A stretch of DNA of 64,000 nt from Eledone cirrhosa (Eukaryota): assembly GCA_964016885.1 (NCBI GenBank), contig OZ024742.1:304854001-304918000 (forward strand). Direction: 5' to 3'. Under the pieces are notes generated by a model, which made no database searches, was not told the DNA's origin, and worked only from the letters and a program-made list of their open reading frames with translations. Of this stretch, positions 6,358-56,900 are shown in pieces (position 1 is the first letter of the stretch; each line of letters starts with the position of its first letter). The position numbers and the translations under genes are program-made.

Positions 6358-6856
6358 TCACATAAGAAACGGAGAATCAGTGGTGCGACGAATTAGAAAT
6401 TATTAGACATATTACAATCGTTTTTCTGGCGACCACCTCGAGGTACGATCGAGGCGAGGATCGAACCCGACACTGAAATCGCAAGTTCTTCAGATACGTC
6501 TTTATCCCTCGAAGCAAAATTTCCAAATGTCCTCTTTATCCCGCCTGCCTTCGTTCGCCAGCATCAATCCTGTTCTTGTCGGTCGATGAGTGGTTTAGAA
6601 TTGAACAGGTCATCGGGATTTCTGACCATTCATGGCCGTATATGAAGAACTTATGATTTCAGAGTCAGGTTCGATCCTCGCATCGATCGTACCTCGAGCT
6701 GGTCGCCAGAGAAACGATTGTTATATGTCTAATAATTTCTAACTCGTCGCACCACTGATTCTCCGTTTCTTATGTGATATTATGCTCTGCTCTGTAAGAG
6801 CATCGAGTGCTCAAACGGCATACCGCATACCGACGCTTTTAAGCATCCCACTCCAA
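6358..6856. mobile_element. Foldback element in (TA)n with ~140 bp arms (6358-6498 / 6637-6777), a hammerhead-like motif in each arm, and an unpaired right-hand tail; probable non-autonomous Penelope-like element
   Basis: Left TCACATAAGAAACGGAGAATCAGTGGTGCGACG... is the reverse complement of right ...CGTCGCACCACTGATTCTCCGTTTCTTATGTGA. Arm consensus is CGTAT-CTGAAGA-(~60 nt)-GAAA-CGATTG-TA-ATATG. Confidence 0.75.
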
Positions 6857-7500
6857 TATATATATATGTGTATATATATATATATATATATATATATATA
6901 TATATATATATATATATATATATATATATATATATATATATGTATATGTGTATATATGTATATATATATATATATATATATATACATATATATATATATA
7001 TATATATATATATATATATATATATATATATATATATGTATATGTGTATATATGTATATATATATATATATATATATATATATATATATATATATATACA
7101 TATATATATATATATATATATATATATATATATACATATATATATATATATATATCTACATATCTACATATATATATATATATATATATATATATATATA
7201 TATATATATATATATATATATATATATATATATATATATATATATATATATATATACATACATTTATATATTAAAAAGTGTAAAAGTCAAAGTCGGTTTC
7301 GAGCCCAGAGTATCGTCAAGAGTAATGCGACTGAGGCTCATTCGTGTCTTGATGCGACTGTGAGTACAAGACTCCCCTCGGACAGGACGCAAGACAATCA
7401 CAAGATTAAACCCCGCCATCTTCAGTTGAGTATACGGAAGCAGCATGAAGTGTTTTGACCAATATATATATATATATATATATATTTATATATATATATA

Positions 7501-7720
7501 ACGAAGGAAATGTGGCAAGGAACCAGGTGGACCATAACGCACCAAAGGTACTCAATACTTAGGGTAGTAGAGTGGGTAATAGGAACGAGAAGGATCACGA
7601 CGGGTGAGCTCAAGCCGTTTCTACGGTTAATTCTGGACTAAAAAAAATGATTTTTGTTTAGTCCACAGTTAGCCGTCGAAACGGCGTGAGCTCAGCCGTC
7701 GGGGTCCTACTCGTTCCTAT
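7501..7720 (-). mobile_element. Foldback (7579-7720) plus one-sided tail, in (TA)n
   Basis: ATAGGAACGAG...CTCGTTCCTAT imperfect palindrome. Tail reverse complement TATTACCCACTCTACTACCCTAAGTATTGAGTACC matches the tail at 53553. Confidence 0.7.
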
Positions 7721-8096
7721 ATATATATATATATACACACACACATATATATATATATATATATATATATATATATATATATATATATATATATATATAT
7801 ATATATATATATATATATATATATATATATATATATACATGTATATATATATATATATATATATATATATATATATATATATATATATATATATATATAT
7901 ATGTATGTATATATATATGTATATGTATATATATATATATATATATATATATATATATATATATATATATGCATATATATATATGCATATATATATATAT
8001 ATATATATATATATATATATATATATATATATATATATATATATATATATATATATATATACATATATATACATATATACATACATATATATATAT

Positions 8097-8375
8097 AAAT
8101 GTAAGTATGTATGTATACGTACATACATATATGTATACAGACGTACAGTAGCATGCATATATATATATATATATATATATATATATATATATACATACAG
8201 GTACACATACATATATGCACGCATCAGTTTAGCGGACGCTTATTATAACGCCGCTTTGTTCGTTTGTAAACAAACTGAACAGCCTGAATTTTACATATAT
8301 GTATGTACGTATACATACATACTTACATTTAAGTAAGTGCCATACTAAGAGTGAGAAATGAAATTTCGTTTTCAT
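8097..8375 (+). repeat. Short foldback plus tail repeat; second copy at ~31640-31745
   Basis: GTATGTACGTATACATACATA(C/T)TTACATTTAAGTAA..CCATACTAAGAGTGAGAA.TGAAATTTCGTTT occurs at ~8300-8375 and ~31670-31745, and 8097-8152 is an inverted copy of its 5' part. Confidence 0.7.
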
Positions 8376-8422
8376 TTTTTTTGTTCAACTTATATATATA
8401 TATATATATATATTAGGATTGG

Positions 8423-53207: not shown

Positions 53208-53390
53208 ATATTTATTAAAATAACAGATTAAAGTTTCAGAAGATCCCGTTAAGGGTGAAAGCAGCGATTCTTTGCTTAAACTTTAATCTGTTATTTTAAT
53301 AAATATTTGCTCTACGGTTCTTATATATTTGATATATATTTATCCTTATCGAGCCCTCTTTGGATTTTAGTCTTCAAATTCATTATTATT
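53208..53390 (+). mobile_element. Short foldback (29 bp perfect arms) plus tail, in (TA)n
   Basis: ATATTTATTAAAATAACAGATTAAAGTTT (53208-36) / AAACTTTAATCTGTTATTTTAATAAATAT (53278-306); tail TATTTGCTCTACG...TATCGAG. Confidence 0.65.
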
Positions 53391-53434
53391 ACTATATATA
53401 TATATATATATATATGAGACAAAAAAATATATAT

Positions 53435-53630
53435 ATATGAAAAATTCGGGACTCCGACGTCTGAACTTCCACCGTTTCAACAGCTAGATCAAAACTGTGG
53501 ATCTAGCAGTTGAAACGGTGGGTGCTCTGCCGTATGGGTCACGAATTTTTCATATTACCCACTCTACTACCGCAAGTATCGAGTACTCTGGTGAGAAATG
53601 ATCTAACTGGTTTTTACCCCTTCCATTATG
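53435..53630 (+). mobile_element. Foldback (53435-53555) plus tail, same family as 7501-7720
   Basis: ATATGAAAAATTCG...CGAATTTTTCATAT with inner CCACCGTTTCAAC/GTTGAAACGGTGG; tail TATTACCCACTCTACTACCGCAAGTATCGAGTAC. Confidence 0.72.
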
Positions 53631-53766
53631 ATATGTATATATATATATATATATATATATATATATATATATATATATATATATATATATAGAGAGAGAG
53701 AGAGAGAGAGAGAGAGAGAGAGATTTACATATACATAAACTAGTATAAAATGTTTATATATATATA

Positions 53767-53931
53767 AAGTTTATCTCGAGTTCAATCGGGGGTAACCACA
53801 GTAAGTAAGGTACTCAATACATAGTAGAGTATTAATATAGAAATGGCTTCTACAGGACTAGAACCGTTTCATTTGGGGATGAAGTCTCCCGAACGAAACA
53901 GTTCTTGTCCTGGAGAAGCCATTTCTATATT
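53767..53931 (-). mobile_element. Foldback (53834-53931) plus left-hand tail
   Basis: AATATAGAAATGGCTTCT..AGAAGCCATTTCTATATT; tail reverse complement TATTAATACTCTACTATGTATTGAGTACC. Confidence 0.72.
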
Positions 53932-56900
53932 ATATATATATATATATATATATATATATATATATATATATATATATATATATATATATATATATATATA
54001 TATATACATATATATATATATATATATATATATATATATATATATATATATATATATATATATATATATATATATATATATATATATATATATATATATA
54101 TATGTATATATATATTTATATATATACGTCCATATATATATGTGTGTATGTGTGCGTGTAGACGCCGTTGTTTTTATCTATGTGTGCATACGCCGCATAG
54201 GCATATAAATAAATATGAGAAATATTCAATATGTTGTATTCATCTTCACGTTATTACGCCTTTGCTCATATATATATTTGTTGTATCTCGGCCGATATGT
54301 CTGTTTGTTCATCAAATTATCAAACTGAATATGTGTCTAAAGAAAAAAAATACACTCAGGTTTTATGAATAATTTGTCTGCTGCATGTCACTATATATCT
54401 GCATTACACATCTGTGTATCCGTCTCTATGTTTGTCTATCCTTCCGTCTATACTCTCCCGCTCTCGATGTTCAGAGGATTGTATGCCCGTATGTCTCTTT
54501 ATTTATCTAAATATAATCAATAGCAATTTTTTCTATTTCTTCATCTCTGCAGCCAGCTAACCCACCGCCATCTCTAGATGATGGAGACAGCCGGGCAGTC
54601 AGGCCACCTTGTAGTCAGGCAGACAATTGGACATTTAGCGGTGGCTGTCAGTCTTCCCATTAATCTGCGACTGTCATTTGGCTCAGACAAATCGTCTCTT
54701 CTCTCACTGACCACCACTTAATGCCATTACACAGGATACCTATATTGACTGCAAATGAATGTTTACAAATTGTCTGCTCCATTCGGCTGAGCTCAGATTC
54801 GCCTCTCATATCACTCCTCATATGATTTTCAATATCTTTATCAATTGCGTGAGACAAAATATTTGCGTGTAGAATATACATTTGCGTGCATTAACGTATA
54901 CACAAATATGTGTATTTCTGTTTGTTATCTAGTATCACCTTCTCATATATCATTTCACCATCGGAGCCCCTACAACTTCATTAAAACAATCATATTCATT
55001 GAAACCATACAAATTCAAGGGATAACTAAATTCTGCGTTACTATCGCCCTTACCAGTATCATTCTAACACAAATCATATTTCCAGCACTCATGTAATGGT
55101 CATTATTACTACGACTTCCACTCAACACAACCTTCGGCAATTATTCCAACTGCAACAACTACTAACGCTAAACATCTCTCCTCACAGCTACTGTAATACA
55201 CACACTCACTCACACACACATACATACACACTCACACACATGTATATATTTATATATATATATATATATATATAAATTCAGCGAGAATCGCATTTCGGCG
55301 GGTAGAAAAAGCGAAACATAACGGAAATTCAGAGTCATGCTAGCAAGCGCTCCTATGGCTAAAAAACCAGAGCTATAAACATAGGTTATAAACGCCATAC
55401 AAGCTGAGAAGGCGGTGAAGAAGGCATTAACCACCTATATATATATATATATGAATAAAAATTTACGAGTAAAATTTGTTGGTGTAGGTAATTGTACAAA
55501 AAAAAATAAAACATGTTATTGCTTACTAACGTATTTTTCTCAACATTGTACTTGTAGGTTACAGAAATAGTCCAATAAGAGGGATAATAATATTAGTAAT
55601 ATGAGACCAGCACTATACAGCACTATGTAGCAATGTAGCACTATATACACATATATTGTATTGAAACATATGTTTAAGAATGAACTTTTGATAAACTTCT
55701 TCACTTTTTTCTATACTCTACGCCTAGTGTTTGAGATTGCCTTTCATGCGTTGAAATATCTATGACCCCCAGCAGACAACTGATGAAGGAAAATGTTCTC
55801 CCTTTCTTGCTTTCCTTATTTATAAGTACACCGTATCCGGCAATTACACAGCCCCTGTTTCTTCTTCTTATATATATATATACATATCATATGCAATATA
55901 TGTATATACATATATATTCGTGTCTGTGATATTGACGAACGTATTCAATGTCGAAGTAGAGTTAAATATTCTTTATTATGTCTAAGTGGTGAGACATGAT
56001 TCTCTGGAGTTTCACCTGTGCAATCACAGGATCAACAGACAAAGCTTTTCTGGTTATCTTGCTGCAGATATTCAGTACATGGATGTGTGTATCTATATGG
56101 CAATGTATGGAAGGATGGGTGGATGAAAATATATATGTATGGGCGGGATGTTCTCTGCAAGACGAGTAATCATTCACGTATATATGTGTTGATTTTCTAC
56201 AGGACAGAGCCTGTCCATGGAAATAAAGTTCAATACATCTTACCACCAGTATATATATATCTATACACACACAGAGGTATATATTTGTATATATGTGTGT
56301 GTGTGTGCATGTGTGTGTGTGTGTGTGTGTATGTGTGTGTGTGTGTGTGTGTGTGTACACAGAGAGAAAAAGGGGAGAGAAAGAAAAAGGGTGAGAAAGG
56401 AAGAGGGAGAGACTTAGAGATAAATTTAGAGAGAGGGGTATGAAAGACAGAGAAAGACAAAGAAGGAGGAATCAGCAGCAGAATCGATTACCTATATGAA
56501 AAGGAGCCTGGAATTTTTTCGTTCTTTTTCGGGTTTACAACGTTATAAGTGTGCGTCTAATATTAAATATAAATTAGATTCATTTAAGTTTTTTGCAATA
56601 ATGGAGGGCTACCACAAACGTCGCTTTAATAGCAGCTCTCTAAAATTAATAAGTTGTTTGTCTATAATTAAGAATGTGTTCAATAGTTTAGAAATTAAAA
56701 AGAAAATGAGAGATGATCAAATATGGCAGCCATCTCATCATATATAATATGTAAATGTTAGTATGTGTGTGTTTATGAGCAGGAATGTGTGCATGTATGT
56801 GGTATTCGTTAGTAATTACATTCCTTCGAACTGTCTTTTCCAACTATTTTCCAACTATTATATATATTAAAAAAATCCATACATCTAGGTGTTTCTCTCC

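Follow-up and report, generated by a model that had tools for sequence, protein, structure and literature searches.

A bulged hairpin lies beside both insertion ends of Hydra-clade Penelope-like elements in Eledone cirrhosa and is a likely signal for positioning their reverse transcriptase

Tailed foldbacks in the window

Here we describe a small bulged hairpin that recurs in the tails of foldback insertions within 64,000 nt of Eledone cirrhosa DNA (GenBank assembly GCA_964016885.1, contig OZ024742.1, positions 304,854,001 to 304,918,000 of the forward strand; this whole stretch is the window, to whose numbering positions refer), and which we trace to the leaders of Penelope-like elements (PLEs) of the Hydra clade. 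An initial inspection of these letters, the original prediction, had listed eight strings of the form ACTC(T/C)AC...T(T/C)GAGT as a tail motif shared by otherwise unrelated elements, beginning where foldback symmetry stops and perhaps fixing that boundary. Each of the eight strings is found where it was placed, and the motif forms a hairpin with a 4-bp RCTC/GAGY outer stem (the proposed pairing of ACTC with GAGT), a 2-nt bulge on the 3' side consisting of T and any base, and an inner stem of variable sequence; across tail families the outer stem occurs as ACTC/GAGT, GCTC/GAGC or GTTC/GAAC. Once microsatellites were masked, local inverted repeats were seen beside six of the sites (6778, 7581 on the reverse complement, 45128, 53304, 53553 and 53837 on the reverse complement), and these carry the full hairpin, its onset 4-10 nt beyond the end of the symmetry. 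Folding of the window sites gives a long foldback followed by an unpaired tail of 70-90 nt, all of them bounded by (TA)n runs.

The leftmost of these insertions, family A, lies in (TA)n at 6358-6852 on the plus strand, with an inverted arm from 6358, a forward arm at 6637-6777 and a 75-nt tail at 6778-6852. Its hairpin (6784-6808, plus strand) starts 6 nt past the break and has the outer stem, a 6-bp inner stem and a TC bulge; a hammerhead-like stem III and cleavage triplet are predicted from the sequence at 6711-6723 (plus strand), with the CUGANGA core intact on the inverted arm. Family B occupies 7501-7717 on the minus strand (foldback 7582-7717, 80-nt tail 7501-7581) and is the 3' end of a young Hydra family, H2; its hairpin, at 7550-7573 on the same strand, lies 8 nt past the insertion end that we call end 1 below. 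Family F (44351-45216, plus strand) has arms at 44351-44502 and 44971-45123, followed by a tail with a hairpin at 45138-45162. Family G, the 3' end of Hydra family H3, lies at 53208-53390 (plus strand; foldback 53208-53306, then tail), and its hairpin at 53309-53354 has a long inner stem; this is the 53304 site, earlier rated a weaker instance, which is a true site that fits the same build with a 36-nt inner part. Element H, of the B lineage, follows at 53439-53632 (plus strand; foldback 53439-53551, tail from 53553, hairpin 53561-53584), and family I at 53768-53926 (minus strand; foldback 53839-53926, then tail, hairpin 53812-53830); a relative of family I, at locus L177, has a full type I hammerhead core (L numbers denote loci examined elsewhere).

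The placement of the motif just past a foldback or hammerhead thus stands for these six sites. It stands in part for 33919, where the end of family D (33817-34007, plus strand; hammerhead core at 33817 and 33855) is followed by a decayed hairpin at 33924-33945 that has a mutated GAG half and no foldback, its relatives having the hairpin intact. It fails for 55712-55735 (plus strand), which we rejected as a member: this is a junction of two different repeats, and its four left-hand relatives lack the GAG half that the join supplies.

Several further foldbacks are present. One at 41497-41580 is followed about 40 nt on by a motif-like string (41621-41644) absent from the initial list and without a second copy among the loci examined. 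Another foldback-plus-tail family, at 63215-63571 and 52901-53105, has a tail hairpin with an ACTC start and a 4-bp inner stem and lacks the GAG half. The foldback at 8414-8740 has a 35-nt tail without the motif, and the one at 34078-34305, 228 bp long, is nearly perfect and has (TA)n at its centre.

The number of sites in the window is by itself weak evidence, six distinct sites being found against 1.8 expected (maximum 6.0 across 100 shuffles), and the case is carried by position and by genome-wide data. The assembly is 3.0 Gb and rich in (TA)n. A B-type pattern matches it 24,716 and 24,842 times, 49,558 in all, against 0 for the reversed control. To sample without selection, tailed foldbacks were catalogued blind to the motif in 60 stretches of 10 kb (600 kb): a hairpin lies within 24 nt of the break in 14 of 41, the corresponding figures being 2.2% for shuffled tails, 3 of 41 for reverse complements and 2 of 32 for arm segments. 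A catalogue of tails comprised 263 in 61 families, of which 21 families have anchors defined by sequence only and sought only in the first 21 nt. Hairpin onset falls 6-9 nt past the break in 18 of these 21, at a fixed distance from the point where symmetry stops, as had been foreseen. Furthermore, their first three inner pairs, unused in selection, are Watson-Crick in 46 of 63 cases, compared with 23.1 on permutation (0 of 10,000 permutations); the inner stem covaries across families. Rfam returned only microsatellite-driven microRNA look-alikes among the 150 of 260 matches listed.

Parent elements and their relatives

Families A, B/H and G are 5'-truncated, head-to-head-joined 3' ends of Hydra-clade PLEs. 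Copies of A and B share a fixed outer boundary and vary from one to the next in arm length and centre, the longer ones continue into open reading frames (ORFs), and 24 of 44 unselected B matches are foldbacks. A miniature inverted-repeat or other fixed-length palindromic DNA transposon was rejected on this variability and on the copies that run into ORFs; for A, B/H and G a non-long-terminal-repeat (non-LTR) retrozyme or other non-coding unit was rejected as well, as all three extend into Hydra-type ORFs. For D, F and I no parent ORF was found among the loci examined. H2, which includes B and H, is young: many of its frames are open over about 785 codons, and one tandem array repeats every 3,542 bp. 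The family A tail lies 1.8-2.0 kb downstream of a decayed Hydra-type endonuclease (L338, L351). The motif is indeed found at the 3' ends of full-length PLEs, where it had been suspected; in its position, its pairing and this occurrence it behaves like the boundary-fixing signal that was originally proposed.

Beside H2 and H3, three further families (H1, H5 and H6) were found. The intact proteins of these five are 34-53% identical to one another. All have DKT and a CxCX5C linker, and an N-terminal RWK (H1, H5) or RWR (H2, H3, H6); a Neptune-like control (L126) has DKG and lacks RWK/RWR, and the linker is likewise present in L338, the parent of family A. These are the Hydra-clade marks of Craig et al. 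2021 (PMC8557442), and one ORF resembles, by eye, the published Hydra-1_Obim protein. Judged by these motifs, with reference reverse transcriptases (RTs) compared by eye, the traced families belong to the Hydra clade. Like the published Hydra PLEs, these elements insert into (TA)n, form partial tandems and inverted copies truncated at the 5' side, and have a tail at one end; the published tails are of 30-40 nt and the elements tend to be under 3 kb (PMC8557442), whereas here tails are about 70-146 nt, tandem periods 3.2-4.6 kb and 3' untranslated regions (UTRs) long. The published elements also have a canonical hammerhead near the 3' end; here clear hammerhead cores are predicted in H1, family I and family A and a U3:A8 variant in H2, and none in H3 matched the search pattern. 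Pfam is nearly blind to these proteins (RVT_1 matched in one of four), and the 54,000-60,000 first-look candidates, which are alike for five different protein queries, are not used as copy numbers.

The claim that the motif joins otherwise unrelated elements survives in part. The B (7581) and H (53553) elements are 81.5% identical over 65 nt, and all traced families are Hydra; the sole other BLASTN match among the elements is 18 nt between B and I, and flanks cannot be aligned between families. On the sequences compared, the traced elements are 3' ends of diverged families of one clade, so that the motif has been conserved through common descent, under constraint on its structure.

The hairpin also extends beyond this genome. 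Three of six published Hydra consensus sequences have it and a fourth has a variant (PMC8557442 supplement): it lies at the 3' end of the coral Hydra-2_Amil and the sea-cucumber Hydra-2_Ajap, occurs twice in the leader of Hydra-1_Ajap, and has a different bulge and one mismatch in a sea-louse element; in the Hydra-1_Amil and Hydra-1_Obim consensi, whose end is bare, it was not seen. A total of 1,273 homologous proteins were also collected. Metagenome loci included the leader in five of nine cases, all five with the core hairpin. L368 has a hammerhead, both hairpins and an ATG, L373 and L375 (one family) have both hairpins, and L367 has one in the leader and one at the 3' end; the strict scan flagged only L367 and L368, the others being read by eye. 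The hairpin is absent from 400 nt of leader in a Neptune-like family, and we call it Hydra-specific only tentatively, because that family is the only one from another clade that was tested. The Neptune-like PLE itself (L124-L137) is intact, with open frames of up to 892 codons and a microsatellite-rich 3' UTR, and it ends in (TA)n or earlier (CT)n with no tail seen in these copies; as a parent of the motif it was rejected, because it lies beside a single A copy by chance. Upstream of a long A copy (L061), what looked like an internal copy of the tail was also rejected, as it sits in a different repeat.

Some features of the arms are worth recording. Of 30 family A forward arms (L031-L060), 14 start at a preferred stop, an 11-nt zone that lies immediately 5' of the hammerhead and about 165 nt upstream of the tail. 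In B, some arms (L097, L100, L118 and others) end at the predicted ribozyme cleavage site, which lies 16-18 nt upstream of end 1 (5 of 41 tailed, 3 of 18 bare), and many end at 54-64 nt, in stem-loop II, although such arm-stop counts are confounded by subfamily divergence and indels. The predicted H2 ribozyme (L305, 5200-5310, minus strand) has a U3:A8 core instead of C3:G8 and a long stem II. The 2.3-kb 3' UTR of H1 (L144-L193) contains decayed internal hammerhead ends and hairpins, one of them like a B arm, as if older ends had been absorbed.

Two insertion ends, two hairpins

Insertions of these elements end at two places, and a hairpin follows each. In five families the order is predicted hammerhead, end 1, hairpin 1, end 2, hairpin 2, ATG. 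Where units are joined in tandem, the tail leads on into the leader of the following unit, and a hairpin of the same build, hairpin 2, lies beyond the tail end, where it is seen only in tandem leaders. Ends were mapped as the onset of (TA)n in all copies examined, with 19 stretches added for H3, H5 and H6. From end 1 to hairpin 1 the distance is 8 nt in H2 (27 copies), 7 in H5 (7 copies) and H6 (5 copies), 5 in H3 (17 copies, with 9 further copies ending 4 nt earlier), and 7 (8 copies) or 12 (16 copies) in H1 across a slipping AAT run. From end 2 to hairpin 2 it is 6 nt in H2 (84 copies), H3 (23), H6 (7) and H5 (2 of 3), and this spacing stays at 6 nt even though the tail ranges from about 70 to 146 nt in length. 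Putative H6 ends at reference positions 304-354 were dropped as an internal microsatellite. Hairpin 2 in H3, H5 and H6 had been predicted in writing before those copies were examined, and was then found. The first two leader bases after each main end are TA, and hairpin 2 ends 25-65 nt before the ATG; in H3 it is capped by a UUCG loop on the sense strand. In the H2 and H1 leaders RNAfold recovers the two hairpins, hairpin 1 of H1 folding without its bulge.

An independent data set agrees with this layout. In a public run (X1), contigs break off at these two places (75 contigs and 313 contigs), which are 80 nt apart and each followed by TA repeats; five common variants fall within the hairpins, four of them in loops and one changing C-G to U-G. 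Runs X5 and X6 gave only 3-4 contigs each. No RNA data set carrying the sequence was listed, which has no bearing on expression. Head-to-head copies mostly join the two kinds of end: across four families, with loci selected on the A or B tail excluded from those families' counts, 30 of 38 inverted pairs combine a bare with a tailed copy, 4 are bare/bare and 4 tailed/tailed. At loci unselected on H2, all 11 H2 pairs are bare/tailed.

We therefore consider it likely, on the sequence evidence, that the bulged hairpin, which occurs twice in the Hydra-PLE leader 5-8 nt downstream of each insertion end, is an RNA binding site that positions the RT at two internal starts. Of the two roles first suggested for the motif, RT binding is a better match than a nick site in DNA, since a hairpin of this kind would be a single-strand structure and insertions enter (TA)n. 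A more specific version, to which we give an even chance, is that the duplicated hairpin acts as a molecular ruler, the subunits of an RT-endonuclease dimer each gripping one hairpin and starting 6-8 nt upstream on opposite target strands. On a tandem (or circular) RNA both hairpins would be occupied by such a dimer, which would also nick the two strands of a (TA)n target; the primers would come from opposite strands. A primer ending in TA would anneal to 2-3 bases of the leader, and its extension would begin immediately 5' of the corresponding hairpin. Hairpin 1 would then be copied, as part of the tail, into the cDNA begun at end 2 and be missing from the cDNA begun at end 1; were both cDNAs to stop early and join head to head, the product would be a foldback with symmetry ending at end 1. 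Hairpin 2 would never be copied, and, as it is left out of insertions, only tandem, circular or read-through RNA would carry both signals.

The Anolis Poseidon PLE offers a precedent for much of this (Frangieh et al. 2024, PMC11167929). In vitro it cuts and extends both strands of an AT-rich target from two internal starts that bound the tail, it requires RNA 3' of those starts, lengthening the RNA 3' end leaves the product unmoved, and it is modelled as a dimer. It differs in belonging to another clade and in having one AC-rich stem-loop that holds a start site, and its binding region is unmapped in that report.

Several observations weigh against this reading. Anchors are absent from 40 of the 61 tail families and some of the 21 are mis-anchored; because of this, and because the families are related, the permutation value overstates significance. 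End 2 of H1 is ragged over 9 nt, with 6 nt as one of two equal modes. For the six newly mapped ends the predicted 6-9 nt held at five (the other is 5) and the predicted TAT at four. Hairpin 2 of H5 has a C.C mismatch as its first pair and that family has only 3 end-2 copies, hairpin 2 of H6 contains a 101-nt insert, and RNAfold misses the hairpin pair in the H3 and H5 leaders. Among metagenome loci, the L372 hairpin has a G.G closing pair and inner stems are often 1 bp. Finally, 8 of the 38 inverted pairs are of the same type.

Other explanations account for parts of the data. If a nuclease or an element protein cut or trimmed the RNA immediately upstream of each hairpin, with ordinary priming from its 3' end to follow, the same two fixed ends and spacing would arise and internal initiation would be unnecessary. 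RNA cut at end 1 cannot template from end 2, however, so that the 30 mixed pairs would need two RNAs per event, and Poseidon starts internally in vitro, with a product that does not shift when the RNA is extended 3' (PMC11167929); we regard processing as unlikely. Alternatively, the GIY-YIG endonuclease may recognise the motif in element DNA or cDNA and nick 5-8 nt upstream, resolving intermediates or building tandems. The TA after each main end agrees with such nicking, Craig et al. ascribe the tail to endonuclease resolution (PMC8557442), and, as cited by Frangieh et al. (PMC11167929), the Drosophila Penelope endonuclease cuts its own DNA only if the tail is present. Double-stranded recognition, however, needs no pairing, and here inner-stem pairing is kept as the sequence varies; the UUCG loop and the C-G to U-G change sit on the RNA strand, and tailed insertions lack hairpin 2. 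We hold recognition at the DNA level to be distinctly unlikely.

Perhaps, instead, the hairpins govern translation or packaging, the TA bases alone set the ends, and the spacing follows from a compact leader. In other systems, bulged hairpins that resemble operators bind proteins, and the short distance from hairpin 2 to the ATG would suit such control. Yet many other TA and TAT sites in the same leaders are unused as ends, and compactness sits poorly with an end-2 spacing that stays constant over so wide a range of tail lengths, which makes leader control very improbable. Least probable by far is that the tails are pieces of one ordinary repeat and the motif an inert leftover: B and H are one lineage and the traced families are homologous, but the unalignable flanks, the covarying pairs and the retention of the motif in coral and sea-cucumber elements all speak against it, and covariation and fixed spacing largely refute it.

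Relation to known systems and other repeats of the window

The Hydra clade, the tail and two-site initiation were already known; to these we add the hairpin, a cis-element conserved among Hydra PLEs. 'Still undefined' is how Craig et al. describe such features of the transposition cycle (PMC8557442), and the word 'hairpin' occurs 0 times in the main text of that paper, though its own consensi carry the structure. A duplicated covarying hairpin with fixed spacing was not found in the parts of the PMC11167929 text that were covered. Non-LTR retrozymes are also short, PLE-derived, hammerhead-bearing sequences proposed to use PLE enzymes (PMC7229834; bioRxiv 10.64898/2026.07.22.740005); they are non-coding tandem repeats, whereas A, B, G and H in the window are dispersed head-to-head truncations of coding elements, and no recognition signal is named in the available text of those two reports. 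More broadly, we found no description of the hairpin in the literature covered, including the accessible parts of PMC8557442, PMC7229834, PMC8969392 and bioRxiv 10.64898/2026.07.22.740005; Arkhipova 2006, Cervera and de la Pena 2014, Repbase and Dfam could mention it.

A short, duplicated, covarying hairpin at a fixed distance from both ends reduces the question of how PLEs choose their ends to a small mutagenesis problem. The RTs of PLEs are a family sister to telomerase. RTs of long interspersed nuclear elements (LINEs) recognise a 3' stem-loop shared by LINEs and short interspersed nuclear elements (SINEs), and in L1 twin priming inversions arise from two primers. The LINE hairpin lies 5' of the start and is copied; the Hydra hairpin would likewise be a 3'-region RT handle, albeit a putative one, but it lies 3' of the start and is duplicated, with the second copy excluded from the insertion. 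If our reading holds, a single signal, conserved in corals, molluscs and echinoderms alike, would explain the puzzling PLE tail as well as the inverted copies, and would show why tandem or circular RNA is required. As a portable handle, the hairpin could also serve to bring any RNA placed upstream of it into the enzyme. For annotation, it gives a sequence handle on a very abundant repeat class, the motif of one family alone having about 49,600 exact-pattern matches. In addition, the foldbacks, if transcribed, would yield almost perfectly paired double-stranded RNA. For octopus, an unusual wealth of such double-stranded structures and of adenosine-to-inosine hyper-editing is reported (PMC5625713), and foldbacks and editing may be linked.

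Repeats of other kinds also lie in the window. A minus-strand tandem array of a two-ORF LINE, presumably L1/Tx1-like, spans 11259-26462. Two of its units, of 5.8 kb, are 99.6% identical; the endonuclease-RT frames, of 1,156 codons, lie at 14987-18457 and 20885-24355, ORF1 has 643 codons and a zinc knuckle, and 11259-14615 is an older copy. A 186-codon frame at 3245-3805 (minus strand) resembles what we take to be the C-terminus of an RTE-type LINE RT. Among the loci examined, L260-L279 hold a 1-1.5-kb repeat with fixed ends and 632 first-look candidates, which by its end features we assume to be a putative Helitron-like element. A 190-bp dispersed repeat is present in the window in four copies that are 85-94% identical, at 34900-35088, 39573-39755, 46094-46282 and 57397-57589.

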